Virus record (IMG/VR): IMGVR_UViG_2821091796_000001
Coordinates: 1 to 64,000 of that record
DNA length: 64,000 bases
Strand: one strand, 5' to 3'
Source of the DNA: a virus
Taxonomy: Duplodnaviria; Heunggongvirae; Uroviricota; Caudoviricetes
Of the stretch, positions 10,649-41,816 are shown in pieces. Under the pieces are notes generated by a model. The model had not been told where the DNA came from. It was given only the letters and a program-made list of their open reading frames with translations, and did no database searches. Numbering within the stretch: position 1 is the first letter of the stretch; every line of letters starts with the position of its first letter. Both the position numbers and the translations under genes were made by a program.

Positions 10649-10749
10649 TTGTCTACAGCGTGCCACGGCTGATCCCATGCGCATTTACCAGCCGATCGCC
10701 ATTTCAGCGCGTGCGAGTATCAATCATCGCAACACGAAGGAGACGCGCG

Positions 10750-11028
10750 ATGGCTTTGATTTACGATGAGAACAACAAATCAGACTTCACTGGCTCGATT
10801 GATCGCATCAACGGCACGAACGCTTATCTGCGCCATTACGCAAACTACCTCTATTTAACTTTTATCCTTGCCAATGGCACGCGCGTCGAAAAGCAGGACG
10901 CATCCAAGGAACTGATCATATGCGAGCGCAAGATGAAGTTCTGGCAAAGACACCCTCGCTACGTCCACGAAGATGCAATGCGTGGCATCGAGCAGCTCAA
11001 GCGAGATTGGGACTCAAAGGCAGCATAG
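10750..11028 (+). CDS. hypothetical protein
   Basis: 92 aa ORF. Confidence 0.4.
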   Translation: MALIYDENNKSDFTGSIDRINGTNAYLRHYANYLYLTFILANGTRVEKQDASKELIICERKMKFWQRHPRYVHEDAMRGIEQLKRDWDSKAA

Positions 11029-14439: not shown

Positions 14440-14540
14440 AGGACTCGATGAGAGAAACCATCAGATTAAGGTGGAAAAGCAAAAGAGAAATCCGAACTTC
14501 GGACGTTTCTAACCTGGACTTACCGTCCGCGATCCAACGC

Positions 14541-14569
14541 GAATATTGATATCAATCATTATTGATTGA
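14541..14569. promoter_or_regulatory. palindromic motif copy (composite, two overlapping palindromes)
   Basis: gaatattgatatcaatcattattgattga. Confidence 0.55.
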
Positions 14570-14586
14570 ACACACGGAGAGGACAA

Positions 14587-14868
14587 ATGAACACCACAAT
14601 GGAGTCAGCCGTCACGTTGAATTGGCGTCAAGGCTTCCGCGACCGCGGCATGGAACTATATGAGTTCAACGACGCAACGACTGTTCGCACCATGCTGCGT
14701 TTCGGGCGGGAGTGGATTAGGGACGACGATGCAGTTGTCGCCCTGCTCTGCGGTTTTCCGGACGATCAGGCGGAATGGATTGCGGATACGAAGCCGACGC
14801 GGGACAAGCTCATCACAGTGATCGAGGAATTAGAAGGCTGGCTCGAGTGCAAAGGGCTCGTCGAATGA
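14587..14868 (+). CDS. hypothetical protein
   Basis: 93 aa; SD ggagagga; palindromic motif upstream. Confidence 0.35.
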   Translation: MNTTMESAVTLNWRQGFRDRGMELYEFNDATTVRTMLRFGREWIRDDDAVVALLCGFPDDQAEWIADTKPTRDKLITVIEELEGWLECKGLVE

Positions 14869-15131
14869 GTCTCACCGTCCTCAAACCAGTCGTGATCAAG
14901 CCTGCTCCGGTTCAAACTCCGCAGTGCTGCATCGAAGTTCCCGCACCTGGCCACAACCAGACCTGGCGCAATCGCTACAGGAACAAGCGTCCGCATCTTG
15001 ATCCAGACCTCTGTCAGCACGCTTCGACCGTCAAGATTGACGGCAAGCATTACTGCACACCCCATGCCGGCCAGTTGGCACTCAAGAAGTGGCTCGCGGG
15101 TGAATTAATTGAGAAGGAAAAGAAACAATGA
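14865..15131 (+). CDS. hypothetical Cys-containing protein
   Basis: 88 aa, ATGA overlap with upstream gene. Confidence 0.35.
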   Translation: MSLTVLKPVVIKPAPVQTPQCCIEVPAPGHNQTWRNRYRNKRPHLDPDLCQHASTVKIDGKHYCTPHAGQLALKKWLAGELIEKEKKQ

Positions 15132-15610
15132 GACAAATCGCAAGGTATATGTTTGACGCCCTGGATGCCGAAGCTTTCCGCGGCGTCAGAGGCATTCAAG
15201 ATGGTGCTTGGCATGTGAACTGGTCTGTTCGCTCCTACAGGATCAACGACAAGGTAGAAGACAATGTTCTAGTCATCCATGCGATAGAGATTGCTGAGCA
15301 ATACCGTCGTCAGGGATACCTGACCGAAGTGTTTCAAGCAATAATCGACCAAGGTGAGATCGGACAGCAAAAGTTCAACTTTATCCTGTTCGAGAACTGC
15401 GGCGAACACCTTCTTGAGTGCCTTCGAACCAAGCTGATGTTCTCCATAACAGATCCTACCTGGCGTCGACTTGCTCATCGGGAAATCGCTCCGTTTCTGC
15501 CATTCGCCAATCGCGATATAGAAGCGCAGCAGAAGCGTTCGGGATCCCAAGCGCGCATTCCCTCGGAAACGTTGATGGATCGCGTGAGTGACGAACCTCG
15601 CGAATCCTGA
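15128..15610 (+). CDS. hypothetical protein
   Basis: 160 aa ORF. Confidence 0.4.
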   Translation: MRQIARYMFDALDAEAFRGVRGIQDGAWHVNWSVRSYRINDKVEDNVLVIHAIEIAEQYRRQGYLTEVFQAIIDQGEIGQQKFNFILFENCGEHLLECLRTKLMFSITDPTWRRLAHREIAPFLPFANRDIEAQQKRSGSQARIPSETLMDRVSDEPRES

Positions 15611-15863: not shown

Positions 15864-15941
15864 TGCGGAGTAGAGAAGTGGTCTATCTCGTCTGGCTCAT
15901 AACCAGAAGATCGTCGGTTCGAATCCGACCTTTCGCAACCA
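15864..15941 (+). tRNA. tRNA-Met (anticodon CAT; could be Ile2/initiator type)
   Basis: hand-folded cloverleaf: acceptor tgcggag/tttcgca (2 GU pairs), D-arm gaga-agtggtcta-tctc, anticodon arm tctgg-ctCATaa-ccaga, T-arm gtcgg-ttcgaat-ccgac with one extra nt before acceptor, encoded CCA. Confidence 0.6.
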
Positions 15942-15978
15942 AATTGGCTGGCGCTGAACAGCGACGGCAACGAACTAC

Positions 15979-16054
15979 GGTGTGGTAGCGGAATGGTTAC
16001 GCAGCAGACTGCAACTCTGCATGGATGCTGGTTCGAGCCCAGCCCACACCTCCA
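15979..16054 (+). tRNA. tRNA-Cys (anticodon GCA)
   Basis: acceptor ggtgtgg/ccacacc, anticodon arm gcaga-ctGCAac-tctgc, T-arm gctgg-ttcgagc-ccagc, discriminator T, encoded CCA. Confidence 0.7.
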
Positions 16055-17174: not shown

Positions 17175-17422
17175 TGAGTGAACGCTCTCGTCGATACGAG
17201 GTGCAGCTCTGCGCCATGAAAACCGATGCCGAGGGCTGCCTCACTTATTGCGACGCTACGGTCGAAACTCCGGAGCTCTATTGTGTCTACGTCAAGGAAT
17301 ACTCCGACAACGATGAGACTGAGATCCACGAGGACGAAGACTACGAATCCAAGATCGATGCGTTGGCTCGCGCTGACGAGCTGATCAAGAAATACCACAA
17401 CTGCCCGTTTGAGGAGTATTGA
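17174..17422 (+). CDS. acidic hypothetical protein
   Basis: 82 aa, ATGA overlap. Confidence 0.35.
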   Translation: MSERSRRYEVQLCAMKTDAEGCLTYCDATVETPELYCVYVKEYSDNDETEIHEDEDYESKIDALARADELIKKYHNCPFEEY

Positions 17423-17425
17423 TCC

Positions 17426-17650
17426 ATGTTTTCACTCTACGCCCTCGCCCGCTTCTTCAAGTGGCTCTTTCGCCCTGAGTTTCACCCTCGGTGTGCATAT
17501 ACGCGTGGCTACTATTCGGCGATTTCGCAGCAAGACTTTCACTCATATCCCAGTCCCAATCCGTTCATACCCGGATCTGATGAGTTCCGGGACTGGAATG
17601 CTGGGTTTGCCGACGGTCTTTGCGAAGTTCTGGACAGCACATCGTCGTGA
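17426..17650 (+). CDS. hypothetical protein
   Basis: 74 aa ORF. Confidence 0.3.
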   Translation: MFSLYALARFFKWLFRPEFHPRCAYTRGYYSAISQQDFHSYPSPNPFIPGSDEFRDWNAGFADGLCEVLDSTSS

Positions 17651-17804
17651 TTCGAACATGTGAGGTGTGGACGGAGGAATTGGGAACTCAGTTTTGCCTA
17701 TTCAAGACCGCAATTTAGACATTTTTGGACCGCGTTGCATTTGAGCAACAACGAGCCAATATCGCCTTAAATTCGATGATTTTGACCCTAATCCTTTTGG
17801 GTTA

Positions 17805-17820
17805 GCGTCAAATTTGATCC
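17805..17820. promoter_or_regulatory. palindromic motif copy (core only) upstream of OMP gene
   Basis: gcgtcaaatttgatcc; additional half-sites ttttgaccc, atcaaaattg nearby. Confidence 0.35.
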
Positions 17821-18000
17821 CTTTAACCATCAAAATTGGGCAAAAATGCCATAATTCGTCGCATGCGCGAACTTGGTAATGTCTTACGCTTGCGTCAAAG
17901 TTTGTTGCAGGTTTTCTGAGGTTCGTTACCTATAGAAATTCGTAAGGATTTGGCGAACACTATCGCCTAATCAGAGGTTTTCAGGTCTGGGGAGGACTTA

Positions 18001-19296
18001 ATGACAAAGACTATTTCCACAATTATCGGTGGGGCGCTTCTTCTAACCAGTGTCGCTACGGCAGCTCAGGCAGGTGGCCTTGAGCGCGGTGGTTACAACT
18101 GGGATCTCCTCTTCAGTGAAGAGCGTTTTGCGACCGAGGGCGGCGTGATCTATGTAATGCCTGATCGCAAGATCAAGAATGCCAAGGATACCTCCACAAA
18201 TCCGCGCCTTGGTCAGGACAATGAGAATTACAAAAAGTCCACAGCCAGTGAAACACCAGACTACTCGGTTTATAAGTTTGGTGCCAAGGTTGGCATCACC
18301 CCGGATTTGGACTGCCTTGGCTCCTACAGCCAGCCATGGGGCGTTCACACGAAGCCAGGTGCCAATTGGGCTGGTGACAATTCGAACATTGAAACGAAGA
18401 TCAGCTCCGACGATTGGGGCCTGACGTGCTCTTACAAATTCCAAGTTACTGAAAAAGGTTCGTTCCGAGTAATCGGCGGCGTTTCCTATCAGGAAGTCGA
18501 GGGTTTCAAGACACGCATGGTCAATGGCGGCATTCCTCTTTCACCTTACGGTAAAGCGGGTTTTGACGGCACCGGTCGTCTGGAACTTAAAGGCGACGGT
18601 GTAGGTTGGCGCATCGGTGGTGCATACGAAATTCCAGAAATCGCGCTCCGTGCCAGCGTCATGTATAATGCGGCCGTGGATCTCGGAGAAGTCGGCGGAA
18701 CTCTCGACCTGAGAGAAATTCCTGGTGCGTTGGCAACTCCTTCAAACCCACTTCCTGGCCGGATTACCGACGTTTATGGCCACGCGAAAATGCCACAGTC
18801 CGTTGAAATCAAACTTCAGAGCGGTTTTGCTCCAGGTTGGCTTGCTTACGGTTCGGTTAAGTGGGTCGACTGGAGTGTGCTGGACGTTATCGCGTTTTGC
18901 CCTGTTGCAACCAAGCCCAGAGGCGGTTGTTCTGCGAGTTCTTCAAATCGTGCAACATCGCTTGACCTGATGTTCCAGGATGGCTGGACGGTAACCGCAG
19001 GCGTCGGTCACAAATTCAACGACCATTGGAGCGGTCAGCTTCAAGTTAGCTGGGACAAGGGCACCACAACGGGTTTGACCACACAGACAGACACCTATCT
19101 GCTCTCGTCCGGTATCGCGTATTCACCAAACAAGAATGTTGAAATTCGTCTTGGCGGCGCAATCGGTTGGCTCTCGTCAGGATCCTACGGCCCAACAAAG
19201 TGCACTGGCAACCAGCCATGCGGCACAGATGTGTCCTATGACTTCGGTGATGACCTCGTGACCGCCGTATCATTGTCTGGCAAGATGAAGTTCTAA
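18001..19296 (+). CDS. FadL/OMPP1/TodX-family outer-membrane beta-barrel protein
   Basis: signal peptide ending AAQA, Gly/aromatic-rich beta-strand pattern, C-terminal ...SLSGKMKF ending in Phe; SD ggggagga. Confidence 0.6.
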   Translation: MTKTISTIIGGALLLTSVATAAQAGGLERGGYNWDLLFSEERFATEGGVIYVMPDRKIKNAKDTSTNPRLGQDNENYKKSTASETPDYSVYKFGAKVGITPDLDCLGSYSQPWGVHTKPGANWAGDNSNIETKISSDDWGLTCSYKFQVTEKGSFRVIGGVSYQEVEGFKTRMVNGGIPLSPYGKAGFDGTGRLELKGDGVGWRIGGAYEIPEIALRASVMYNAAVDLGEVGGTLDLREIPGALATPSNPLPGRITDVYGHAKMPQSVEIKLQSGFAPGWLAYGSVKWVDWSVLDVIAFCPVATKPRGGCSASSSNRATSLDLMFQDGWTVTAGVGHKFNDHWSGQLQVSWDKGTTTGLTTQTDTYLLSSGIAYSPNKNVEIRLGGAIGWLSSGSYGPTKCTGNQPCGTDVSYDFGDDLVTAVSLSGKMKF

Positions 19297-19319
19297 TTCA
19301 TCTATCGACTGCTCAAACA

Positions 19320-19352
19320 GAAAAGCCCGGTATCACTACCGGGCTTTTCTGT
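19320..19352 (+). terminator. rho-independent terminator
   Basis: aaaagcccggt-atcact-accgggctttt ctgtattt. Confidence 0.7.
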
Positions 19353-19372
19353 ATTTATCCTCTGTTCCACGC

Positions 19373-19849
19373 TTAGGACTTGAACGGAACCTTCGCCTCA
19401 TAGAGAATTTTTCGAATGCTGGCATTCGAACAATGATGCCGATGCGCAAGCTCATCTGGGGTAAAGCCTTCCTTGGCATCAGCTATCACCGCTTCGCGGT
19501 AAATCACTCCTGATGTCGGCAAGCTGATTCCACGCTTCTCCAGGGCAGTCCGGATCGTCGCATAGTTGCGGCCGCCAAATGCAATACCGATGTCCGTAAG
19601 GCTAAGATCACGCCGCCTGGAATACACTTCCACAATCGCATCTACCCGCACTTCGGCAATATCCGCGCGTCGTTTGTGGCTTATGATATCTTCCGAAGCA
19701 AATCGATTTTTGTCCGCATGGTGATTGATAATGCTCTCGATCGAAGGGCGCTTGCTGGTGTAATCGAGCGCTTCTTTATTGACGTCGTTATTTAGTGAAT
19801 CTGCCATGGTAAAATGAATCTTCTCGTGAGCTGGATGCTGCCGAACCAA
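19373..19849 (-). CDS. DnaA domain IV-like DNA-binding protein (C-terminal domain only)
   Basis: DIISHKRRADIAEVR ... SLTDIGIAFGGRNYATIRTALEK closely parallels DnaA C-terminal DLLSKRRSRSVARPRQ ... [20 protein letters not shown]. Confidence 0.55.
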   Translation of the reverse strand: MVRQHPAHEKIHFTMADSLNNDVNKEALDYTSKRPSIESIINHHADKNRFASEDIISHKRRADIAEVRVDAIVEVYSRRRDLSLTDIGIAFGGRNYATIRTALEKRGISLPTSGVIYREAVIADAKEGFTPDELAHRHHCSNASIRKILYEAKVPFKS

Positions 19850-19900
19850 TATCTACTCGGCCCAGAATTGTATACGCCTCGCCGTGTCGATGGTGCTGAG

Positions 19901-20485
19901 CTAGCGAAAAATCTTGTTAAATTTATTCCTTAGCCAATCGGGTGTAGGACGTGCACCCTTTGCGAGATCCAAAGATACTAGAAATTCCCACCAGTGATTC
20001 AGCAGCTGTTCGAATGTGTTGAAAGCAAAAGGGCTTGCGACCTCACCTGGCGTGATATGGTATAAAGCAAAACCCGGGGGAATGTCCTCGTCACCCTCTT
20101 CCCAGAATATTGATACTGTCCCGCCGAGCCAATTTTTCTCTTGAAACTTTGAATGTTTAGCCGTGTTAGCCACGTCCGAGCAAATTGATTGCTCTGGCAC
20201 TGATGCTAGGAGGAGACTGTTAAATTCTGGCTCGCCAATAACTTGTCCCTTATCGCGAAGGCTTCTTATTCCAATTGTTCTCGTCCAATCTTCAAGGCTT
20301 TTGGCGCATATACAAACATTGATCGCTGCATAAACCAATGGCTGAACTTCAGCTGGATAAGAGCGTTGGATATCCTGAAAGACATCTACATCCCACGCCA
20401 ATTTCTCCCACATCGCCACGGGATCCCCGATCGTGACGGTATGAGTCTCGGGGCCTTTGTTCGGATGGTTTTTGTTTCGTGACAT
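19901..20485 (-). CDS. hypothetical protein
   Basis: 194 aa ORF in AT-richer island. Confidence 0.4.
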   Translation of the reverse strand: MSRNKNHPNKGPETHTVTIGDPVAMWEKLAWDVDVFQDIQRSYPAEVQPLVYAAINVCICAKSLEDWTRTIGIRSLRDKGQVIGEPEFNSLLLASVPEQSICSDVANTAKHSKFQEKNWLGGTVSIFWEEGDEDIPPGFALYHITPGEVASPFAFNTFEQLLNHWWEFLVSLDLAKGARPTPDWLRNKFNKIFR

Positions 20486-21394
20486 ACCTTATGGCTAATC
20501 CAGAAATTGTGGATTTGCAAAATAGAATTCCGATTTCGCCGAATGACCCATACGAGCCGTTCCACATCTGTTCCATCCCTATCCACAAGCACTTTTTACT
20601 TGATCGCAAATGTGTGGGATATTGGAATTGGCAAACTGGAGTCGGAAGGAGAGTTGAAGGGTCACTTCGGGGTGGCGCAAAACGCCGGATTCAGTGGGGT
20701 CGTTCTGCTAAAACGACAATCCAACCCAGCCACTCAGAAAGGAGATCCTCATGTTCTTTGAAACAGTGATCTTAGTTTTGACGATACCGCTAGCGGTTGA
20801 CGCACTACTATCAATCGCCGACCGCTTTCGTAAGCGATAAGTGATGGGGTTGGTTACCACCCGAATGGTAGCCGCTTCCATAACAAAAAACCCGCGAGTT
20901 GCTAAGGCTCGCAGGCTTTCTGTATACATTCAGTTCAAGGGATCCTTGAACATGTCTTTGAAACAATATCGACACACTACCTGTGTCATTCTGTTTTGTC
21001 AAACAAACCGGCACATACGATTCAGCCAGCCCGTTCGTTTCATCCAATTGACCTTTCGGAAAATTGCACGCGTTTCAACCTATGTAGTCGTTGCACGTTA
21101 AACATTCAACAGACCATAACCGATTGGCCTTGTAGGGAGGTCTGTTCAAACACGGAAGTCATTAGAAAACGATCGTTTGTAAATGCCGATAATTGATATT
21201 CGGCGCCATATTCATTGGGTTCGTAGCGGGCACGGCGCTCAGTCTGGCCTTCGTTTTAGCGCTTTCCAACTGCATTTGTTAGGCTTTGAATTTGCGCCCA
21301 CCCAGTAGAATCCAAGGGTATATTAGCTACGGTTAACCGAGTATTAACCAATGAAAACAAGCCTGTATTAACCAACCGATATCCACTGTCACAC

Positions 21395-23132: not shown

Positions 23133-23405
23133 ATGTCCCTTGAAATCCGTAAGTTCATCACGGTCTCCACAGCTCACGTATCATTTGAGACAGCCGCGTT
23201 ATTGAACGACAACGTCAACCGTCCGTGCTTGGGCGGCACATATGGCGACTATGGCTGGTTTCTCTATGCGAGGGACGATGATCAGGGCGAAATTCCTGAT
23301 GACCTCTGGAAGGTATTTCAGTGGGTCGTGCAACAGGGTATCGATTACGTCGTTCTTGACCGCGATGCAGATCACATCGACAGCCTTCCTACCTTTGATT
23401 GGTAA
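23133..23405 (+). CDS. hypothetical protein
   Basis: 90 aa; TTGCTATAAC box upstream. Confidence 0.4.
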   Translation: MSLEIRKFITVSTAHVSFETAALLNDNVNRPCLGGTYGDYGWFLYARDDDQGEIPDDLWKVFQWVVQQGIDYVVLDRDADHIDSLPTFDW

Positions 23406-23524
23406 CACCGACTAACAAGTAAAGGCGGCTCTCACCGTCTTTTTCTTGCAGGTGAGCTCAGCCATGGACCGCCCTGCCCTCTCGTTACCAACAGCAACCA
23501 TTTGAACGCCTCGTCAAATCGTCA

Positions 23525-23562
23525 TATAACTAAAGAACGAAAAGACGAAAGCGCGAAAGAAC
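23525..23562 (+). repeat. ACGAAA tandem-hexamer element
   Basis: aagaACGAAAagACGAAAgcgCGAAAgaACGAgaac. Confidence 0.4.
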
Positions 23563-24043
23563 GAGAACAGCAAATGACCTGGAATTACATGAGAGGGTGG
23601 CTACCTCAGATCAAATGAGCCCGGCTGAAAGAAGCGCCGACACACATACGGTAATGCTGCCATTTGGAGCAAAGTCCGATAGTCGCCCATCCGTCAGGAT
23701 TATCTGGGTGAGATCTTCTCAAACGTATGCCTCACATTGTCCGGCTCGACCGGCAGCAGGTGTTGTTACGGAACTAACCCGCTTGATTGCTCACGATCCG
23801 CACCCTTCGTTGACCTGCACCTGCGGCAGGACTCAATGGGCACTGTCAACTCGGTGCGCGATCAATGAACAATCGTGAAGACAGATATAACCAGGAACGC
23901 GCTACGGCGCGTTTTCTCGTATCTGCACGCAGCCATGGCTGACCTTGGGCGAATCCCATGGCGGCCGGCGGATTAGCGATTTTGTCACTTGCATCAATTA
24001 GGCACATCATTGAATCCTAACCTCAGCTAGTGGGAGATAATCA

Positions 24044-24427
24044 ATGCCTGAGCTTACACCACCTTTCGGACTAACCCGTCTCGAAGGCGAATACATGGGC
24101 GACTTCAGTTCTCGATATGTGGAGTTCTTTAAAGAAGCTGTAGAGGACGCCCATAATCACCATGATATCGTCTCGCTCGTCTACACCGAGGATACTGCGA
24201 TGGCCCACGGCGGATCATCGCCGGATTTCTTTAACGAGAGATTCTTCGAGTTGGGTGCGCATCGCTACAACGATCCGATTTTGCTTCTGCTTGCTGACAG
24301 GGTGATCTTCCGAACCGAATATTATCCAGAGCGCGTAGTCGTAGATCGCTCAATCGGGTTCATTTCCCCTGAATTCGAGAACTTCGCCACCCGGCCCGAG
24401 GATGACTTGGAACTCTCTCAGGACTAG
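24044..24427 (+). CDS. hypothetical protein
   Basis: 127 aa. Confidence 0.4.
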   Translation: MPELTPPFGLTRLEGEYMGDFSSRYVEFFKEAVEDAHNHHDIVSLVYTEDTAMAHGGSSPDFFNERFFELGAHRYNDPILLLLADRVIFRTEYYPERVVVDRSIGFISPEFENFATRPEDDLELSQD

Positions 24428-24479
24428 TTCCAGCGCAACCTTTTCCTGATCCACCCGTTAGACTCGCCTTAAGCACCGA

Positions 24480-24803
24480 GTGAGGCGAGTCATGATGGAC
24501 TATGCGGTAAAGGAAGTCGCCGTTGAAACAGCTCAGATTGGCCGTATGCGCGTTTTAGCGAGCGTGGGCGACTTGGCAAGGTATTTGCTGGAGGAATGGC
24601 CTGACGACGCGGGAGAGAAGCACAGGGCAGCGCGAGAAGCCTGTCTTGAAGCGCTTGCGGGCAAAATCTCTCCGGGCGTCGCGAGGATCGCATTTCTAGA
24701 GGCGGCCGAACAGGACAACGTATGGACCATGGCAACCCAGAGACCTGAATCGACCGGCAAGGTTGAGCACAGATTCAAGCGCCGTGGCGCATATCGCCGC
24801 TAA
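24480..24803 (+). CDS. hypothetical protein
   Basis: 107 aa. Confidence 0.35.
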   Translation: MRRVMMDYAVKEVAVETAQIGRMRVLASVGDLARYLLEEWPDDAGEKHRAAREACLEALAGKISPGVARIAFLEAAEQDNVWTMATQRPESTGKVEHRFKRRGAYRR

Positions 24804-25438
24804 TTCACAATCAACAGCGTGTCGTCGGGAAGCGGCTTCTGTAATTGGAGAGCCTCTTTGAAGGGTGCGGTCATCCAATGATCGACCTCCTCTGGTGTGC
24901 GCAAGATCACCGGCATTGCCTTTGGATGAATCGGCTTGACGACATTGTTTGGATCAGTCGTGAGAAAGCCAAACAGGGTGAAATCACCAGGCCCATCTTT
25001 GACGCGCCTCACGCCGGTCCACTGTGTCCACATACCGGCAAAGAAGAACAGCGGCTTGGTCTGATCCAGGGCGAAGAACACATTGGGCGTCTTTCCCGCC
25101 TCATCCTTGTAAGGGGCCGGCTCAGCAAAGCTGGTCACGGGCACGACGCACCGGTTTTCAAGCCCGTGATATTGTCTCCACCAAGGAAAATGTGAATTGC
25201 GGATATTTGACTGACCGGGATCGTAGTTCTTGCCGACCAGATGCTTAGGATCCGTGGGCAGCCCAAATTGCATAGTCGCCATCTCTCGCACACCATCGGT
25301 GCCATTACGGACGATAGGGGCAAAGGAGTTCTTGTAGACGTTGATATCGGGCTCAAGGTTGCGAGAGATATCTCGCAGAGCGCGAGTGAACAGAGTGATC
25401 TCCGCCTGATTGCTCGCCAGCTTAAAGTAGTTGCACAT
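24800..25438 (-). CDS. SRAP (SOS-response-associated peptidase, YedK/HMCES-like) abasic-site processing protein
   Basis: start MCNYF.. (Met1-Cys2 catalytic nucleophile), ~212 aa, conserved ...PIVRNGTDG ... HSHFPWW-like segments. Confidence 0.6.
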   Translation of the reverse strand: MCNYFKLASNQAEITLFTRALRDISRNLEPDINVYKNSFAPIVRNGTDGVREMATMQFGLPTDPKHLVGKNYDPGQSNIRNSHFPWWRQYHGLENRCVVPVTSFAEPAPYKDEAGKTPNVFFALDQTKPLFFFAGMWTQWTGVRRVKDGPGDFTLFGFLTTDPNNVVKPIHPKAMPVILRTPEEVDHWMTAPFKEALQLQKPLPDDTLLIVN

Positions 25439-25512
25439 CGACGTTCGCCTTCTTGACTCTTTTCCTAAATGAGAACAAATAAGGAACATATTCCGTTTTG
25501 AGCGTCAAGGAT

Positions 25513-25761
25513 ATGTCCGGACCTAAGCATTTACGCCTCGTTGCCGACGTCACCAAGTTCTCCGATTTGGACAGCTGGGAGCATCTCTATGCCTATTGCC
25601 CAGACTGTTTCAGGAAGATGCGTCTGGATAAAAATCGCCTCGGAAGAAAATATGGTTTTCACGCGAGGATCAATACGCTCAGAAAGTTCCTCGCATGCAA
25701 AAATGTGAATTGCAAAAACAAGGTGGGCAACGTGTTTGGCACCGCCAATGAGGCTCGTTAG
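25513..25761 (+). CDS. hypothetical Cys-containing small protein
   Basis: CPDC ... CKNVNC pairs. Confidence 0.3.
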   Translation: MSGPKHLRLVADVTKFSDLDSWEHLYAYCPDCFRKMRLDKNRLGRKYGFHARINTLRKFLACKNVNCKNKVGNVFGTANEAR

Positions 25762-26099
25762 GGCTTCGAACAGAATGCCTCTGTCAATGCTTTGTTGACG
25801 AGAAACCCACCAGGCTCGTGACGTTTGTCAGGATTGTTCTTCAGATACTTTGTCACAACATCCGCTACCTGCTCGCCGCTGATAGGGCTTAAAAGACACG
25901 GCTCTTTCTTTGAAAGCAAACGGATCACATCGAACGAGTCTGCAGATCCCTGCGTATAACCTAGACAGAGAATGTATTCGTCCTTCGTATTATCCTTGCA
26001 TACATTATAGAGATCGTTGCCATTATAGAAACCCGCATGTGCGGAGTTCACACTCGCAGCGCACGCAATCGCAAACAATGCAATTCTCCAGATTCTCAT
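25758..26099 (-). CDS. secreted small Cys-containing protein
   Basis: signal peptide MRIWRIALFAIACAASVNSAHA, four Cys. Confidence 0.45.
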   Translation of the reverse strand: MRIWRIALFAIACAASVNSAHAGFYNGNDLYNVCKDNTKDEYILCLGYTQGSADSFDVIRLLSKKEPCLLSPISGEQVADVVTKYLKNNPDKRHEPGGFLVNKALTEAFCSKP

Positions 26100-26141
26100 A
26101 GCCCCACCCTTCCCCAAGATTCAGTCACATTCTAGTGCAAC

Positions 26142-31713: not shown

Positions 31714-31949
31714 TTAACGAAGAGACGAAATGGCGAAAGCGCGGCTTTCACGTCCAGAGAAAAACCATGTATGTCGAGAAGAGCTACGCATGGTATTTCA
31801 GCCTCCTGAGTTCCAGTCTCTGTTCCTTGTCCAGTCCGCCGTGCTTCTTCAACCAGATGAGAAGCTGTAACCGGGCCGCATTACGGCGCTGCTGAATCTC
31901 GAGGGAACGAAAGGACGATTCCAATACTTCGTTCATTCGTTCAAATGCC

Positions 31950-32480
31950 TCAGACATAGGGTTTGCCCATCCAGTAATCGCGCACGATCTTGTCGGCGCG
32001 CTGCCAAAGGCCGAAATCTCCTCCCTGCAGAACAGTCAGGAGAACTTGCTTCTCGCGCATGTAGACTTTGGCAAAATCCGGGTCGTGTGCGACGATTGTG
32101 GCTGTGTTGTCGATGAGATCGCACAGCTTGATGGTCATGGCATCGTTCGAGATTGTGGCGATCCGCTCCGTCTCAAGCTTAAACCGTGTCTTCCGATTGC
32201 CAGCGCTCATGGGAACCTTGTTGGTCAGTTCATCAACCAGCTTGCAGACACGGACATCGAAATATTCGCGCAGCAGAGCCAGGGTGACGCCGGTATCCTC
32301 GACCACGTCATGCAGGTAGGCGGCGCAGAGCATGGCATCATCATAGTTCGCTGCTTGCTTAACGAGCTGCGCCACTGCGACTGGATGAACGATATAGGGT
32401 AGTCCCGTGTATTTACGGCGTTGATCGATTGCCGCATGCGCAGCATTGGCAAATAAGAGTGCATTTCCTGGAATATTCAT
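31950..32480 (-). CDS. small alarmone hydrolase (RelA/SpoT-type HD domain, (p)ppGpp hydrolase)
   Basis: AAYLHDVVEDTGVTLALLREYFDVRVCKLVDELT matches SpoT/Mesh1 HD hydrolase core; 176 aa single domain. Confidence 0.65.
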   Translation of the reverse strand: MNIPGNALLFANAAHAAIDQRRKYTGLPYIVHPVAVAQLVKQAANYDDAMLCAAYLHDVVEDTGVTLALLREYFDVRVCKLVDELTNKVPMSAGNRKTRFKLETERIATISNDAMTIKLCDLIDNTATIVAHDPDFAKVYMREKQVLLTVLQGGDFGLWQRADKIVRDYWMGKPYV

Positions 32481-32543
32481 CGCTGTGTTCTCTCTATCGT
32501 CAAATCGTCATTTCGCTTTATAGCGAAATAGCGCTAGAATATC

Positions 32544-32560
32544 AGTCAATTTTGATTTAC
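32544..32560. promoter_or_regulatory. palindromic motif copy in divergent region
   Basis: agtcaattttgatttac. Confidence 0.5.
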
Positions 32561-32590
32561 CTTTTGGTATTCAAAACAACGGAGACAAGC

Positions 32591-32833
32591 ATGTCTGAAA
32601 GACTATCAATCAAAGGCGATGTGAGCCACTCAGCAACAGAGCGGCAGAACCTCGAGTTCGTCGGTGCAGGTGGGCCGGGAATTATGGTTTCACTCGGGAC
32701 GGCCGATAATCTGCACACAGCAATCGCCAAGACACGTCTCGGGATCCTGCAGGACCAGGCGAACGGCGTGAAAGACCGCGACTATACACTTCATGTAGAG
32801 CCGGCTGCTTCCTCATGCACGACGGGAGAATGA
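32591..32833 (+). CDS. hypothetical protein
   Basis: 80 aa. Confidence 0.35.
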   Translation: MSERLSIKGDVSHSATERQNLEFVGAGGPGIMVSLGTADNLHTAIAKTRLGILQDQANGVKDRDYTLHVEPAASSCTTGE

Positions 32834-33161: not shown

Positions 33162-33434
33162 TCACTTCGCCGCCTTGTGCTTTTCGACCCAGGCGGCGAA
33201 GGCCTGCTCAAGCAGATCGCGATAACTGATATCGTGCGTTGCAGCCGTCAATTTAAACACGCGTTTGAACTCCTTATCGACCTTGAAGTTCAAATTTGCA
33301 TACTCTGTTTCAGTCATATTGTTCGGAACAGAAGTCGGCGCAAAGGTCGGCACTTCTGACAAACCACCCAGAAACGACGCCCTCGCGCGTTTTGGTGCCG
33401 GAACAGGGGCCTTCGTTGTCTTTGTGTCAGCCAT
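33162..33434 (-). CDS. ParG-like ribbon-helix-helix partition protein
   Basis: 90 aa, disordered basic N-terminus then short helical C-terminus; immediately downstream of and overlapping parA. Confidence 0.45.
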   Translation of the reverse strand: MADTKTTKAPVPAPKRARASFLGGLSEVPTFAPTSVPNNMTETEYANLNFKVDKEFKRVFKLTAATHDISYRDLLEQAFAAWVEKHKAAK

Positions 33435-34074
33435 TATACTTCTCCTCTATCTCGTTAACACGTGACACGATCTCCGCGGCCAACTGGTCCGCCCGCTCGT
33501 TCAATGTGGGGAAATTCGTCTCGGCAATCGTCAAGCCAACGTTCTGCGCCATTTGGTAGCCAGTCTTATGGCCGAGATCCGTCTCTGCAACGCGGTAGAT
33601 GCTCGACAGATATTGTCTGGCCTCCTGCACCGCGAGCTTGCTGTCCGTTGTCTTGTTGAGAACAAACAGAATGGTTTCCTTATCGACACCGCGCTCCACG
33701 AGCTCGTTGGCGAAGAGAATTTGCGGCTCCAGGTCGTCCAGCGTCAGTCCGGTCGGTATAACGTTGAGCGTGGCAATCCTGGCGATCTCAAGCGAGGATT
33801 GATCACTATCTGGCGTCCCATCGGCGACGATCAGGTCGTAATTGTCGCGCCGGATTGAGCGGATCGTTGTGCAGACCTCGGCAGCAATTTCAGGCGTCGC
33901 CCCAAGCGCCATTCGACGCGCCGCCCATTTGGTCGAAGTGAGCTGATTGACGTTGAAGTCGGCGATCTTGACGCTCCAGCCCGCCGACGCGTAGGTCCGG
34001 GCGATGAGACGCGCAAACGTTGATTTGCCGACGCCGCCCTTCTGGGACAAGCACGATATGACGTTTTCGACCAT
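33427..34074 (-). CDS. parA: ParA/ParF-type partition ATPase (small type Ib)
   Basis: deviant Walker A SQKGGVGKST, 215 aa. Confidence 0.75.
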   Translation of the reverse strand: MVENVISCLSQKGGVGKSTFARLIARTYASAGWSVKIADFNVNQLTSTKWAARRMALGATPEIAAEVCTTIRSIRRDNYDLIVADGTPDSDQSSLEIARIATLNVIPTGLTLDDLEPQILFANELVERGVDKETILFVLNKTTDSKLAVQEARQYLSSIYRVAETDLGHKTGYQMAQNVGLTIAETNFPTLNERADQLAAEIVSRVNEIEEKYNG

Positions 34075-34077
34075 TAG

Positions 34078-34112
34078 TCTTTTCGCTCCTGCGTCTTTTC
34101 GTTCTTTCGTCC
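34078..34112 (-). repeat. ACGAAA tandem-hexamer leader element in parA 5' UTR
   Basis: minus-strand reads aaggACGAAAgaACGAAAagACGcagg then ggagcgaaaagacta ATG. Confidence 0.45.
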
Positions 34113-34191
34113 TTACATGATTCGTAGGGATTCTCGCAAGACACGAAAAAGGGGCCAGAAGGCCCCTTTACACTTATTCAGGTTTCGGCTG

Positions 34192-35610
34192 CTAAGCAGC
34201 GAGCTCCTCCTTCAGACGCTTCTCGGTGCGAGCACGCAGCTCAGAAAGGGAGGTTAGTGCTTCGAGATTTCCCTTCGAGTAGACCACTTTGAGCAGATTG
34301 TCTTGCAGTTCGACCTGATCTTCAGCCAGTGTTACGACCGGATAATCAATGAGCCTTGTCGCGCAGACTGCAAGACGACCCGCCTTTGACGCCTTCGTCG
34401 GATCTGTCGCCGGCCGCTTCTGAACCGGAACCCATTCGCCATTGTCGATCTGAATTGCATTTGCCTTCATAGCAAAGCGCAGGTCATCGCGCATGACGCC
34501 CTGGAGAAGTCCGCCTCCCATGCCAACAGCGATATTGTCAGCCGACCAGCCTTCAAGCAGAAGGGTGCAAAAGAGTCGGTCGATCTTCTCGAGGTCCATG
34601 CCGTCGCCCTGGATGACGCGCACCTTTGGGTTCAACACCTTGTAGCCTTTCGAATTGATCGTCCCGCCGAACTTTTCCCAAAGCGCGTGAAGGACATCAA
34701 GAGGAGTCGTTACCGGATCACCGCTATCAGGACGAACAACCAGCGTTCCGCCCATCTTGAGCACTTTTTCCTTCAATTCGCCGCCCCAGACGTTCTCGAC
34801 TGCATTCATGAGGTCGTAGCTGTCAGAAACGACCGCAACGATACCAGACCCGAACTGATCGATCATATTGCTGTAGGCATCGGCCTCGCGATCCTTGCCC
34901 CAAGAAGTGATGGTCGAATGTTCCGCGGCTGGGATTGAGAAAGCTGGCATCTCGTTGGCGCCATAGTATCGACGGGCAAATTCCAGCGCTTCCATCGTGT
35001 CAGTTCCTTTGAAATTGACCAGATGCGCGAACCCGCCAAGTGCTGCACTTTCGCTCGAAGAAACGCCCCTTGCGCCGAAATCATGCAGTTTGAAGGGTAT
35101 CTGACCATCCGGATCTTCGGAGCTTTGCAGAAGCGCCCTATAGATGATCTTTTTCACATGGTAAGAAAGCGTTGCGACAGTCGAGGGATACCAAATTGCG
35201 CGGAGCAGGGCGGTTTCGATGAAGGTCGAGAGCCAGGGAAGACGCGGATCCAGATTGCGCACCTGCACAAGCGGCGTTCCCAGCGGAACGACGGATCCTT
35301 CGGCAAGCGCCTGAATTTCGATCGGCAATCGGCCGTTATGCTCGAGCCGGATAATATCCCATCCTTCACGATTGAACGGCAGGCCATGCTCCTTGCAGAC
35401 CAGTTCGGCCTCATCGACATCAAGGCTGTCGATCTTCTCTGTGAGATACTGCTTGATGAACGCCTGCAGACCAACAAAAACGACCTCTTTGAAAATCCCG
35501 CCGGCGCGTGCTTCGACATAGGCCGAAACAGCGGTCGTCTGGGGCGGATATTGAAGGAAGTGAGACTGTTTGTAGCTATCGGTAGCAAGAATAAGATTGC
35601 GGAAAGACAT
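34192..35610 (-). CDS. nadV: nicotinamide phosphoribosyltransferase (NadV/Nampt)
   Basis: 472 aa; N-terminal ILATDSYKQSHF and overall Nampt-family layout. Confidence 0.8.
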   Translation of the reverse strand: MSFRNLILATDSYKQSHFLQYPPQTTAVSAYVEARAGGIFKEVVFVGLQAFIKQYLTEKIDSLDVDEAELVCKEHGLPFNREGWDIIRLEHNGRLPIEIQALAEGSVVPLGTPLVQVRNLDPRLPWLSTFIETALLRAIWYPSTVATLSYHVKKIIYRALLQSSEDPDGQIPFKLHDFGARGVSSSESAALGGFAHLVNFKGTDTMEALEFARRYYGANEMPAFSIPAAEHSTITSWGKDREADAYSNMIDQFGSGIVAVVSDSYDLMNAVENVWGGELKEKVLKMGGTLVVRPDSGDPVTTPLDVLHALWEKFGGTINSKGYKVLNPKVRVIQGDGMDLEKIDRLFCTLLLEGWSADNIAVGMGGGLLQGVMRDDLRFAMKANAIQIDNGEWVPVQKRPATDPTKASKAGRLAVCATRLIDYPVVTLAEDQVELQDNLLKVVYSKGNLEALTSLSELRARTEKRLKEELAA

Positions 35611-35660
35611 CGTGAACTCCTCACGTTTGAATTTTGATGGAACAGCGGACTCCCCGCTGC

Positions 35661-36719
35661 TTAGAAACCGATCATCTTCTGCAAGATTGACCAGTGATCC
35701 TCGAAGAACACCTGTGGCTCGAGGTCGCCAAGACGATACCAGTCGGCATGTTCGGCATCGTCGGAGCCCTTCACTGTGAAAAGCTCCTTTGAATCGGGTA
35801 GAACGAACCGATAGGCTGTTGTCACAATCCTACCGCGCAGTGAGCGCTTGGGGTGATCGAACAATTCGCTTCCGGTGATGAAGGATGCGAGCATCGAGGG
35901 CGGGATTTCGCCCTTTCTGTCAGAGATTTTGGTCTCTTCCTTCAGTTCACGCACCGAAGCATCGCGGATCTGCTCGTTCTCGTTGACGAAGCCGCCGGGA
36001 AGAGCGAGCAGGCCGTGACCGTATTCCTTGCCGCGACGGATCAACAGCACATGACCGGATTGTGTGACACAGGCGTCGGCCGTCAGGAACGGGCCTTTGC
36101 CATAGGTCTTGCGATAGTCGATCAGATATTGCTGCTCATACACGCGCCTCTTGAACTCTTCGGTGAGCATGTATTCTTCCAGAAAACCCGCCACCTGGTC
36201 ATCAAGACCGCGTGTAGGGATCAAGGGAAGGGGTTGAAAGTAGGCAGCACGAATGTTCGACGCATTGAATGTGCCGAACTGACTGCCGATCTGGATCGAC
36301 TCCCACTCAGGAAAGCGTTTCAGATAAAAGCCGGTAGCGTCCTTCCCGAAGCCGGCAAGAGCGACCTTGAAGTCATTGATGCCTGAAGTGTGGAAACCGT
36401 GATTGTTTCCGTATTCAAGAATGATATCGGTAATCGTGCGCTGCACGCTCGCGATCCAGGCACTATCATTGTAGAGATTATCTTCCAGCGGCTCAACGAT
36501 GAGACGTTCAGTTGCCATTTCGTGGCGAAAGACACGATGGATCATCTCCTTGCGTTCCTCGAAAGTGAACGGGTTGGCGAAGTCCCTGGCGATGTTGGAA
36601 GATCCGATCAGCACGATCACTCGCTCAGCCTGTTTTAAAGCTTCACGAATGACGTGCTGATGACCGATATGCAGTGGTTGAAATCTGCCGATGAATACGG
36701 CGAAGTGATACTTAGACAC
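35661..36719 (-). CDS. nadM: bifunctional NMN adenylyltransferase / Nudix hydrolase (NadM-Nudix)
   Basis: FIGRFQPLHIGH (H/T-x-G-H nucleotidyltransferase motif) N-terminal; C-terminal Nudix box GGFVNENEQIRDASVRELKEETKI. Confidence 0.8.
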   Translation of the reverse strand: MSKYHFAVFIGRFQPLHIGHQHVIREALKQAERVIVLIGSSNIARDFANPFTFEERKEMIHRVFRHEMATERLIVEPLEDNLYNDSAWIASVQRTITDIILEYGNNHGFHTSGINDFKVALAGFGKDATGFYLKRFPEWESIQIGSQFGTFNASNIRAAYFQPLPLIPTRGLDDQVAGFLEEYMLTEEFKRRVYEQQYLIDYRKTYGKGPFLTADACVTQSGHVLLIRRGKEYGHGLLALPGGFVNENEQIRDASVRELKEETKISDRKGEIPPSMLASFITGSELFDHPKRSLRGRIVTTAYRFVLPDSKELFTVKGSDDAEHADWYRLGDLEPQVFFEDHWSILQKMIGF

Positions 36720-36844
36720 TCGAGACTCCCTCGAACTATGTTGAATGCGCTGAACTCCTCAGCGCTCACACAGACTATTATAGCAGCGATCGTCAGGGCT
36801 ACATCGAGAAAATGCAGGAAAGTGCACGGCGGCTGATCCCGTAT

Positions 36845-36890
36845 AAGGACGAAAGGACGAAATCGCCCTTTCGTTTATTCGTTATACCCT
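36845..36890 (+). repeat. ACGAAA tandem-hexamer element with inverted partner
   Basis: aaggACGAAAggACGAAAtcgcccTTTCGTttattcgtt. Confidence 0.4.
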
Positions 36891-37358: not shown

Positions 37359-37756
37359 GTCGGCTCAAACTCGTCTCTATCGAAGAGCTCTTCGAACACG
37401 TCGATATCGGCCCGAAGCGCGTTCCATCGAAACTCAATCTCTGTCCTGGCGGCCATATCATCGCGGAGTTCCACTATCTCGGCGTCATCCGGGACACAGT
37501 TTGCCGCACGAAACTCCAAAAGACGCAAATCACGAGACACTCGGGATGAAATATCTGCGAACTTGTCTTCCACGTAACGCACCCGACGTGGCTCAAGCCG
37601 ATAGACCGTTCTGGTGATATCGGTTGGCACTGGATCATCGGGATAAGGCAGGTCCACCGGAATTTCCCAGTTTTGAAACACGATGTCGCGCTGACCCGGT
37701 CGGAGCGGAAGGTGTAAATGTCCGACTAGCCTGTTGTCGTGATAAACCTGAATCAT
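37355..37756 (-). CDS. hypothetical protein
   Basis: 133 aa. Confidence 0.35.
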   Translation of the reverse strand: MIQVYHDNRLVGHLHLPLRPGQRDIVFQNWEIPVDLPYPDDPVPTDITRTVYRLEPRRVRYVEDKFADISSRVSRDLRLLEFRAANCVPDDAEIVELRDDMAARTEIEFRWNALRADIDVFEELFDRDEFEPT

Positions 37757-38313
37757 GCAACGCGACCTTCGATCACGTTTATCAGCTTGACTGCCAAGTC
37801 TTTGCGGGCATCTTCCTTCGAAAGACCCCGAGCAAGTCCATCATTAAGAATCTGCGCGTGCGCATGAACCGGATTGAAGGTGTCGAACTCAAACTTTGAG
37901 GGGCCGGCGAGAGGATTGACGATCTCGAGAACCAGCGCACCTTGATCTCGCCAGTATTTGCCCTGCTCACGACGGACGGAACCAAAGACCGCGGTTGCTT
38001 CCTTCGGTCTCGCGTTGTGACTCATGAGCGGAATGATGTCGCCACCGAACTTCTCTTCGAAGGCATTCCCAATCTCGCCGAGGATTTCGCGAACCTGCCA
38101 TTCCCTGCCGTTAAGCACGACGTTCTCGAGCTTGCCTTCCTGAGTGAATACCTGGTGCTGAGTGAGACCAAGGTAGTCGATGGCGATCTTGCGCAAGGGA
38201 AGTCCATCATCGGCCGTGGCGTGACCGTAGATTTCGCCGATGATTTCGGCTGCTGTGGTTTTTCCAGATGTTGGGTGACCACAAAGTGCAATGTATTGGG
38301 GGATTTCGGTCAT
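37753..38313 (-). CDS. P-loop kinase (phage dNMP kinase-like)
   Basis: Walker A GHPTSGKTTAAE near N-terminus, 186 aa. Confidence 0.5.
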   Translation of the reverse strand: MTEIPQYIALCGHPTSGKTTAAEIIGEIYGHATADDGLPLRKIAIDYLGLTQHQVFTQEGKLENVVLNGREWQVREILGEIGNAFEEKFGGDIIPLMSHNARPKEATAVFGSVRREQGKYWRDQGALVLEIVNPLAGPSKFEFDTFNPVHAHAQILNDGLARGLSKEDARKDLAVKLINVIEGRVA

Positions 38314-40277: not shown

Positions 40278-40982
40278 TTGTCGCAACCGAAAACCGAACT
40301 GCTTGACCCGAATACGCTCCAGAAAAACCCCTGGAACACCAATATCACCACACCGGAGAACGACGCCAAGCTCGAGGAGTCGATTAAGAAGTTCGGCTTT
40401 ATTCGGCCAATACTCGTTCGCGAAGTAGAGGAGGGTCTTCAGATCCTTGGTGGTGAGCATCGATGGGAAATTGCCAAGAAGCTAGGAATCGACGTTCTGA
40501 TCCTCAACCTCGGCGCTCTCGATGATCCGACAGCCAAACAAGTCTCAATCCTCGACAATACGCGCTATGGAACGGATGACACGCTCGCCTTCGCCGAACT
40601 CTTGAAGGAACTCTCAGGCTACGATGACCTGCAGTATCTTCCCTACTCAGATGCCGATTTCGAAGAAATCTTCTCGACTACTCATATAGCGCTCGACGAC
40701 TTGGGTATTGAGGAGAACTTCGACAATGACGAGGAAATCGACAATACACCTCCCGAACCCAAGGCGCCAAAGACACACACTGTCATGCGCTTTAAGGTTC
40801 CCATCCTCGATGCCGAGCGCATCACGGCGAAAATCGCCGAAACTCGTCGCGATCATGATCTCAATTCCGCTGATGAACTCACCAATGCCGGCGATGCTCT
40901 TGTTCATCTTCTCGTCAGTCGATCGGCTCCTGTCGACGTTAGTGACATGGAAGAAGCCCTTCTGGCGGATCTCGACGTATGA
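40278..40982 (+). CDS. ParB-like nuclease domain protein
   Basis: FGFIRPILV ... ILGGEHRWEIAKKLG (ParB/Srx fold); TTG start. Confidence 0.6.
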   Translation: MSQPKTELLDPNTLQKNPWNTNITTPENDAKLEESIKKFGFIRPILVREVEEGLQILGGEHRWEIAKKLGIDVLILNLGALDDPTAKQVSILDNTRYGTDDTLAFAELLKELSGYDDLQYLPYSDADFEEIFSTTHIALDDLGIEENFDNDEEIDNTPPEPKAPKTHTVMRFKVPILDAERITAKIAETRRDHDLNSADELTNAGDALVHLLVSRSAPVDVSDMEEALLADLDV

Positions 40983-41164
40983 GCACCAAATTTCCTGATT
41001 GCGTATCCTGTAAATTCTACAACAAGCGCTTCGTCGGCAAACGCGCCAATCCAGTCTGCGGAGAGTGCGACAACGGTGAGTTCTATGAGGAGTGGGTGCG
41101 CAACAGGGCTCTGAACGACAATGAATTGATGTCCCTTTACGGAAAGATGCACCATGACAACTAA
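40979..41164 (+). CDS. zinc-ribbon protein
   Basis: CVSC ... CGEC. Confidence 0.4.
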   Translation: MSTKFPDCVSCKFYNKRFVGKRANPVCGECDNGEFYEEWVRNRALNDNELMSLYGKMHHDN

Positions 41165-41816
41165 GACCCCAGCTGAGACAGTTGAGCTCTGGGATATTGA
41201 CCGGATCAAGGAATACAAACTCAACGCCAAGATCCATAATGAAAAACAGGTCACTGACCTTGCAAAGTCGATTAAAGCATTCGGTTTCTCGCAACCGATC
41301 ATTGTCTGGACGGACGGCACCATCATTGCAGGTCATGGGCGTCGACTGGCTGCCATCTCACTGGGAATGAAGAAGGTTCCTGTCGTATGTCGCTCGGATC
41401 TTTCCAAGGCGGAAGCCGATGCTATGCGCCTTTCCGACAATAAGGTGACATCGGTCGAATACGATATGTCCATGCTGCAGGATGAGCTTCAGCGCCTCGT
41501 CGGCGAAGATATCGATATCGATCTGACCGGTTATTCCGACTTTGAAATCCAGTTTTCGACAGATGATATCGGAGAAATGGACGAGGGCGCCTTTGTTGGC
41601 GATATCGGCGCCGCTGTCGAGGTCCAAGCTGAAGAGAACAAAAGGGCTGCAGGCGTCGTTGATGATGTGGCTGCGCCAATCACCGATGCGCTTGGCTTCA
41701 AGCGCGTGACCATCGCCCAGTCCCGCACCATTCGGGAACTGGTCGCTCGCGTCGAAGCCAAGACCGGCAAAACTGGAGTGGATGCGCTGATAGCTGTGCT
41801 ATCGGCCGCCGCATAA
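41154..41816 (+). CDS. ParB-like nuclease domain protein
   Basis: FGFSQPIIVW ... IIAGHGRRLAAISLG. Confidence 0.6.
   Translation: MTTKTPAETVELWDIDRIKEYKLNAKIHNEKQVTDLAKSIKAFGFSQPIIVWTDGTIIAGHGRRLAAISLGMKKVPVVCRSDLSKAEADAMRLSDNKVTSVEYDMSMLQDELQRLVGEDIDIDLTGYSDFEIQFSTDDIGEMDEGAFVGDIGAAVEVQAEENKRAAGVVDDVAAPITDALGFKRVTIAQSRTIRELVARVEAKTGKTGVDALIAVLSAAA

Follow-up and report, generated by a model that had tools for sequence, protein, structure and literature searches.

A tailed phage recorded in IMG/VR as IMGVR_UViG_2821091796_000001 carries a gene whose product is, by every test available, predicted to be a stand-alone small alarmone hydrolase (SAH) with an intact active site, a judgement drawn from sequence comparison and a structure model. 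The gene lies at positions 31950..32480 on the minus strand of the stretch analysed here, 64,000 nucleotides (nt) that we call the window; all statements on its genes cover these 64 kb of a 118-kb contig. SAHs of phages are already known: they were described and functionally tested in 2020, are common, and are routinely annotated, for example in Pseudomonas phage Adele. We favour, with a probability of roughly 0.55, the reading that the protein would serve as a general alarmone eraser that blunts growth arrest mediated by the stringent response or by toxic alarmone synthetases (toxSAS).

Sequence and structural evidence for a small alarmone hydrolase

The open reading frame (ORF) starts with ATG at 32480, stops with TGA at 31950-31952 and encodes 176 amino acids (aa), to which the ORF scan together with profile, structure and residue matches assigns a single hydrolase (HD_4) domain of the RelA/SpoT homologue (RSH) type. 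This agrees with the first-pass annotation of the window, which had placed a 176-aa ORF at exactly this position, attributed to it the HDVVEDT-bearing HD core of RelA, SpoT and Mesh1, and seen no synthetase domain. The motif, read directly from the sequence, is encoded by 32292..32312 (minus strand) and covers residues 57-63, in which H57 and D58 would be metal ligands and E61 and D62 the catalytic pair.

Profile searches consistently point to the hydrolase half of the RSH proteins. Pfam HD_4 matches with 54.6 bits (gathering score 27.2, E=1.3e-14) over profile positions 1-139 of 156, and PHROG 990, 'metal-dependent phosphohydrolase', with E=1.6e-38. Of the 687 positions of the NCBIfam model TIGR00691 (spoT_relA), only 1-133, which lie in the N-terminal hydrolase part, are matched (E=4e-24), and no synthetase (RelA_SpoT), TGS or ACT domain was found in the 176-aa protein, whose Pfam matches are HD_4 and HD only. 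Among 5.8 billion proteins, 1,773 homologues were found at E<=1e-5; together with the profile scores, this places the match to RSH hydrolases beyond chance. Sequence matches in the Protein Data Bank (PDB) are led by human MESH1 (3nr1, E=3e-13) and include Drosophila Mesh1, N-terminal domains of Rel and SpoT, and bacterial SAHs. An identical protein is held at NCBI as 'HD domain-containing protein' (WP_182552244.1), encoded on a contig of 118,187 bp from Phyllobacterium myrsinacearum, a bacterium related to Rhizobium.

The catalytic residues can be compared in detail with those of human MESH1, in which the metal is bound by H35, H61, D62 and D122, the scissile phosphate is contacted by Y32, D66 and N126, and the purine is held by R24 and K25 (10.1101/325266). 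The metal tetrad corresponds to H32, H57, D58 and D121 of the window SAH, and E65-D66, R24-K25, Y32 and N126 correspond to E61-D62, R22-K23, Y29 and N125; every metal-, phosphate- and purine-contacting residue of MESH1 has its equivalent. An alignment of 45 family members is invariant at H15, R22, Y24, Y29, H32, H57, D58, E61, D62, G94, R96, R99, K118, D121 and N125, and once human MESH1 is added at R22, K23, Y29, H32, H57, D58, E61, D62, D121 and N125. The MESH1 row of this alignment agrees with the PDB-search alignment over residues 17-128 and with the numbering of 10.1101/325266. The check proposed in the first-pass annotation, an alignment to Mesh1 and SpoT HD domains to look for the His and Asp ligands, thus finds all four of them present and invariant.

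A very confident AlphaFold2 model, for which 42 homologues were used (mean predicted local distance difference test score, pLDDT, 96.8; predicted template modelling score, pTM, 0.92) consists of ten helices and a two-residue bridge. As modelled, the protein would adopt the compact all-helical fold, with a short beta-hairpin, of the Mesh1 and bacterial-SAH type. Foldseek superposes the model on Drosophila Mesh1 (3nqw) over its whole length with a template modelling (TM) score of 0.86 and a root-mean-square deviation (rmsd) of 2.0 Å, and TM scores of about 0.8 were obtained for the human MESH1-NADPH complex (5vxa), P. aeruginosa SAH, C. glutamicum RelH and Leptospira SAH.

Relation to known hydrolases

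SAH relatives occur in 223 of 50,697 phage records in GenBank, among them many virulent and jumbo phages, and in at least 482 stretches of IMG/VR. The nearest experimentally tested relative is the SAH of Salmonella phage SSU5, a PaSpo protein. Identity is 42.6% over 155 aa, a placement by pairwise similarity only and to this single PaSpo member. Both proteins are stand-alone and phage-borne, have a single HD_4 domain with the same invariant catalytic residues, and are encoded by a gene that overlaps its downstream neighbour. The SSU5 protein differs in its length of 213 aa, which includes about 45 aa of C-terminal extension, and in its downstream partner, a 183-aa protein unrelated to the orf57 product described below. 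It also differs in having been tested against five toxSAS classes, whereas the window SAH is known from sequence and model. In those experiments the SAHs of SSU5 and of Salmonella phage PVP-SE1 (PbcSpo) neutralised all five tested toxSAS classes upon co-expression in E. coli (PMC7229694). SSU5 PaSpo is further in routine use to tame CapRelSJ46 in overexpression (PMC9712102) and, likewise, PhRel2 (10.1101/2021.04.30.441581). Separately, on the viral contig L085, ARAGORN finds a tmRNA gene (10433-10847, tag ANDEQFALAA) about 6 kb downstream of the SAH gene of that contig.

Among solved structures, Mesh1 and human MESH1 (3nqw, 3nr1, 5vxa) provide the best match over the whole length (TM 0.82-0.86, rmsd 2.0-2.3 Å), with an identical metal tetrad, ED pair and R-K, Y and N residues. 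Sequence identity is nevertheless only 28-30%, the nicotinamide-riboside residues of MESH1 are not kept in the window SAH, and Mesh1 is a eukaryotic cytosolic enzyme with NADPH as its proposed main substrate. Similarly, the bacterial SAHs of P. aeruginosa (6yvc), Xanthomonas (XccSAH) and C. glutamicum (RelH, 7qod) share the fold (TM about 0.8), the single domain and the 'orphan' status, with no cognate synthetase adjoining. They differ in being host-encoded, at 22-27% identity, and in acting in self-protection or physiology, whereas the window gene is phage-borne.

A further parallel is the type IV antitoxin ATfaRel of Cellulomonas marina, a PbcSpo protein that, as an SAH, detoxifies the products of a toxSAS without binding the toxin (PMC7229694). 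ATfaRel is encoded in an operon with the toxSAS FaRel, whereas the window SAH has no synthetase-domain gene adjoining it or in the accessory ORFs scanned. Finally, the hydrolase domain of the long RSHs, Rel and SpoT, is homologous to the window SAH, which matches both TIGR00691 positions 1-133 and the structures of their N-terminal domains. The long enzymes additionally carry SYNTH, TGS and ACT or other regulatory domains; the window SAH would lack ribosome- or synthetase-coupled control.

Gene unit and immediate surroundings

The SAH gene appears to be expressed together with one small downstream gene. The ORF scan places orf57, a basic ORF of 57 aa, at 31784..31957 on the minus strand, with its ATG overlapping the SAH stop by 8 nt (ATGTCTGA). 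No Pfam or PHROG match was found for orf57 and, beyond the closest relative of the locus, no homologue among 5.8 billion proteins. That relative is L001, which comes from a public sequencing run as a contig of 118,412 bp and encodes an SAH with 67% identity to the window SAH. ParA-like, RHH, SAH and orf57 genes follow one another in the same order in both, with identities of 85% for ParA and 62% for RHH. Since orf57 is kept in L001 at 74% identity and with the same overlap, it is a real gene, probably coupled translationally to the SAH gene. In the NCBI annotation orf57 begins at an internal Met, giving 50 aa; this Met is not conserved in L001. A conserved partner gene of SAHs in general was considered and rejected: the downstream genes of the Rhizobium phages (180 aa) and of SSU5 (183 aa) and orf57 are mutually unrelated.

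A terminator-like hairpin at 31733..31751 (minus strand), 33 nt past the orf57 stop, likely marks the end of the SAH-orf57 transcription unit; the assignment is weak, because the consensus scan found one site in the region, where 2.2 would be expected by chance. On the other side, a divergent intergenic region of 110 bp (32481..32590) separates the SAH gene from a plus-strand ORF of 80 aa (32591-32833) preceded by GGAGA. This is presumably the promoter region; a scan of 32481..32590 found no sigma-70 consensus, a scan that is uninformative for an alpha-proteobacterial phage. Two small plus-strand ORFs lie between the SAH gene and the next minus-strand genes, which Pfam and PHROG identify as coding for an RHH protein (33162-33434) and a ParA-like ATPase (33427-34074). 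A 69-aa membrane protein is also encoded among the neighbours.

The surroundings also bear on a role in cis. A Pfam scan of 38 accessory-region ORFs of the window, SAH neighbours included, found no synthetase domain. An ATfaRel-like type IV antitoxin of a phage-borne toxSAS was rejected on this ground, and the SAH gene is not a cis antitoxin.

A possible role as alarmone eraser

For the general alarmone eraser, the activity, the range of substrates and the benefit that the phage would draw are inferred as follows. One Mn2+ would be held by H32, H57, D58 and D121, and a water molecule would be activated by E61-D62. The purine nucleotide would be held by R22/K23 and Y29, with N125 contacting the phosphate, and the 3'-pyrophosphate would be cut from (p)ppGpp and/or (p)ppApp to yield GDP/GTP or ADP/ATP and pyrophosphate. 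Lacking synthetase, TGS and ACT domains, the enzyme would be unregulated and active whenever it is made from the unit that its gene forms with orf57. By holding the alarmone level down, during infection or in a cell that carries the phage, it would blunt growth arrest, whether this originates from host Rel/SpoT or from the toxic alarmone synthetases of abortive-infection and toxin systems.

This reading is favoured because of the SSU5 and PVP-SE1 precedent, the lack of a synthetase in cis and the many virulent and jumbo phages that carry SAHs, a distribution that speaks for a role during infection. The first-pass annotation had likewise cited reports that phage SAHs degrade toxic alarmones made by toxSAS or CapRel-type defences, or reprogram stringent signalling of the host. 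The neutralisation of toxSAS holds as observed in E. coli co-expression rather than in infection, but the wording is imprecise for CapRel, because CapRel-type toxSAS pyrophosphorylate tRNA and make no alarmones (10.1101/2021.04.30.441581).

Several points weigh against the alarmone eraser. The nearest experimentally tested enzyme is just 43% identical, and a preference for (p)ppGpp, (p)ppApp or another substrate is unreadable from sequence, as was also stated for another phage SAH (PMC12846349). No host toxSAS is known, and what is conserved next to the SAH gene are genes of partition type (ParA-like, RHH) and one orphan ORF, with no recognised anti-defence gene among them. In addition, SAH enzymes are promiscuous and act on NADPH (PMC9765508) and on pyrophosphorylated tRNA (10.1101/2021.04.30.441581), and the relevant substrate may for this reason be no alarmone at all.

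Possible repair of tRNA ends

The best-surviving alternative, which we nonetheless consider unlikely, takes up this last point and regards the SAH as a tRNA repair enzyme. It would strip the 3'-pyrophosphate that toxSAS of the CapRel, FaRel2 and PhRel type leave on CCA ends, restore aminoacylation and belong to a phage toolkit for tRNA protection. In vitro, MESH1 and ATfaRel restore the aminoacylation of FaRel2-modified tRNA (10.1101/2021.04.30.441581), and in vivo the 43% identical SSU5 SAH neutralises CapRel, PhRel, PhRel2 and FaRel2 (PMC7229694; PMC9712102). The window phage itself encodes an RtcB-type tRNA/RNA ligase (7613-8998, plus strand; PHROG 1075, E=2e-90) as well as tRNA-Met and tRNA-Cys genes (15864-16054, plus strand), which suggests that damaged tRNA is repaired or replaced by the phage.

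Genomic context adds to this in a sister group of the family. In 42 of 85 SAH loci the SAH gene follows directly, on the same strand, behind genes for a DSP-like phosphatase, an AAA_33 Pnk-like kinase and a Metallophos phosphoesterase, often accompanied by a T4 Rnl1-like RNA ligase and a TROVE or DUF2828 TROVE-like RNA-binding protein. These loci, L012 (8183-11653), L014, L031, L036, L054, L064, L067 (5485-17060) and about 35 others from IMG/VR, represent one SAH sub-clade with pairwise identities of 55-100% (18 groups at 90% identity). They are embedded in tRNA arrays of up to 34 genes, with 222 tRNA genes in 526 kb as compared to 15 in 650 kb of the remaining loci. Such a locus looks like a tRNA supply-and-repair module that holds an SAH, and the neighbourhood of tRNA arrays and repair genes supports an RNA-end function of the sub-clade. 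An embedding of SAHs in tRNA arrays or healing-and-sealing gene sets was not among the ranked hits of a literature search.

The window SAH, however, falls outside this sub-clade, in the other group. The tRNA and repair neighbourhood is a trait of proteins at most 49% identical to it, no homologues of their repair genes were found near the window SAH, and RtcB and the tRNA genes lie 16-24 kb away from it. Since the tRNA regions of large phages gather accessory genes generally, the adjacency in the sub-clade may also be unspecific, and no toxSAS is known for the host. Extended to all phage SAHs of this family, the proposal that SAHs are mainly tRNA 3'-end repair enzymes, working alongside tRNAs, Pnk-like kinases, phosphoesterases and ligases (RtcB here, Rnl1-like in the sub-clade), appears doubtful to us; if true, a side activity on tRNA observed in vitro would be the main role of phage SAHs in vivo.

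Possible protection of a carrier cell

A quite improbable alternative places the benefit outside lytic infection. The phage would be plasmid-like, and its SAH would protect the carrier cell by detoxifying the (p)ppApp of Tas1-type type VI secretion system (T6SS) effectors delivered by competing bacteria. In competition with Pseudomonas, Xanthomonas mutants without XccSAH are more readily killed (PMC9765508), and the title of Steinchen et al. 2021 connects P. aeruginosa SAH with interbacterial antagonism. A Rap1a-family protein resembling T6SS immunity proteins is encoded at 25758-26117 (minus strand; PF18602, E=1.5e-14), and L001 contains three copies (13979-15531).

Two ParB_N proteins are encoded at 40278-41816 on the plus strand, and the ParA-like gene and the RHH gene that overlaps it form a type Ib partition-like pair. 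These genes, and the presence of the phage as a separate 118-kb contig in a bacterial assembly, suggest that it may be maintained like a plasmid or in a carrier state. No gene for an integrase, a repressor or plasmid replication was identified within the 64-kb window. SAHs of this family are plentiful in strictly lytic and jumbo phages, where shielding a lysogen would be pointless.

NADPH and the NAD+ salvage pair

Upstream of the SAH gene, at a distance of 1.7 kb and on the same strand, the window encodes a NAMPT (34192-35610, minus strand; Pfam NAMPT_N and NAPRTase) and an NMNAT-Nudix fusion (35661-36719, minus strand; Pfam CTP_transf_like and NUDIX). Together, NAMPT and NMNAT make up a pathway of the NARP2 type, with which phages counter defences that deplete NAD+ (10.64898/2026.01.28.702374; PMC13464706). 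This raises the possibility, very unlikely in our view, that the SAH partners these enzymes as an NADPH phosphatase: by turning NADP(H) into NAD(H), it would help to restore the NAD pool once such a defence has acted. Human MESH1 (10.1101/325266) and the Xanthomonas SAH (PMC9765508) do dephosphorylate NADPH, a Xanthomonas sah mutant is low in NADH, and the MESH1-NADPH complex 5vxa is among the best structural matches of the model. Both genes also lie within 7-8 kb in three Rhizobium phages and in locus L029, and the phages PVP-SE1 and Adele combine an SAH with NAD+ genes as well.

Residue comparison and synteny speak against such a partnership. At the MESH1 positions W138, H141, R142 and E145, which contact nicotinamide riboside, the window SAH has A137, Y140, M141 and K144 in the MAFFT alignment or F136, V139, Y140 and E143 in a register shifted by one residue, and conservation is lacking in either plausible register. 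The missing motif does not settle the matter, because XccSAH likewise lacks it and is weakly active on NADPH. As to gene context, relative to L001 the NARP2-type pair is a 2.8-kb insertion (34075-36881) outside the SAH unit. L001 has an SAH but no NAD+ genes at the syntenic site, where the homologues of orf158 and ParA are just 63 bp apart. In a census of 84 other SAH loci over a 10-kb range, only L029 has both NAD+ genes and L067 a partial NMNAT match, which amounts to one or two loci in 84.

The first-pass annotation had put the SAH in the same island as the NAD+ salvage genes. The proximity of 1.7 kb stands, but the ParA-like and RHH genes lie in between, and a tight operon of SAH and NAD+ salvage was rejected on the basis of L001 synteny and the census. 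What remains is a loose co-residence in Rhizobium-type phages. The phages RHph_X66, V1VFA-S and B1VFA have both the closest SAHs and the closest NAMPTs among GenBank phages, with NAMPT 6.7-7.7 kb upstream of the SAH on the same strand. This spacing indicates that the two genes recur in one accessory arm of the phage group without being an operon.

As published, the NARP1, NARP2, NARP3 and NARP1-AP pathways have no HD or SAH component; NARP3 consists of PnuC and NadR, and the 'phage phosphatase' associated with NARP1 is the Macro-domain enzyme Adpp (10.64898/2026.01.28.702374; PMC13464706). A link between the SAH and the 'phage phosphatases' of NAD+ reconstitution was rejected, since the latter are Macro-domain Adpp enzymes of NARP1 operons. 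In PVP-SE1 (L086) an NMNAT and a PnuC-like transporter of nicotinamide mononucleotide, a NARP3-like combination, are found at 17275-20795. The SAH gene of this phage lies elsewhere in its genome and was not found within the first 50 kb.

The least probable explanation, a generic or decayed HD phosphohydrolase (nucleotidase or dNTPase) with no alarmone link, could draw on the functional diversity of the HD superfamily and on the second HD-type enzyme of the window (2170-2925), yet it is highly improbable: all RSH-specific catalytic and substrate-binding residues are invariant, searches by sequence and by fold both give only RSH hydrolases as best matches, and conservation of the family extends over more than 1,700 proteins.

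Other genes of the phage

The window represents a tailed phage with genes for a large terminase, portal, scaffold and major head protein, a tape measure protein of 1,578 aa and a RIIB-like protein (695-2170, plus strand), and its DNA is only distantly related to that of Rhizobium phages of 115-122 kb. The second HD-type enzyme mentioned above (2170-2925, plus strand) is classified by PHROGs as a deoxyribonucleoside 5'-monophosphate (dNMP) phosphatase, and a dNMP kinase-like protein is encoded at 37753-38313 (minus strand). Together, the RIIB-like, dNMP phosphatase and dNMP kinase-like genes suggest further remodelling of the nucleotide pool. An unusual phage cargo is a FadL/TodX-type outer-membrane beta-barrel transporter of 431 aa (18001-19296, plus strand; PF03349, E=3e-17). 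A cluster of small accessory genes (23133-25489) comprises DUF5983 (23133-23405), DUF982 (24480-24803) and an SRAP/SOS-response-associated peptidase (24800-25489, minus strand).

Implications

By itself, the SAH gene changes nothing in the current understanding, given that phage SAHs were predicted and tested in 2020 and are common. If the enzyme is active, an alpha-proteobacterial phage would join the viruses with a broad eraser of 3'-pyrophosphorylated nucleotides. The same genome arm carries the NAD+-rebuilding pair, the RtcB ligase and the T6SS-immunity-like protein, which would make up a compact set of countermeasures at the metabolite and RNA level. The more useful lead comes from the family: a comparison of SAHs located in tRNA-repair modules with those located elsewhere could help to decide whether alarmones or tRNAs are the target of these enzymes during infection.

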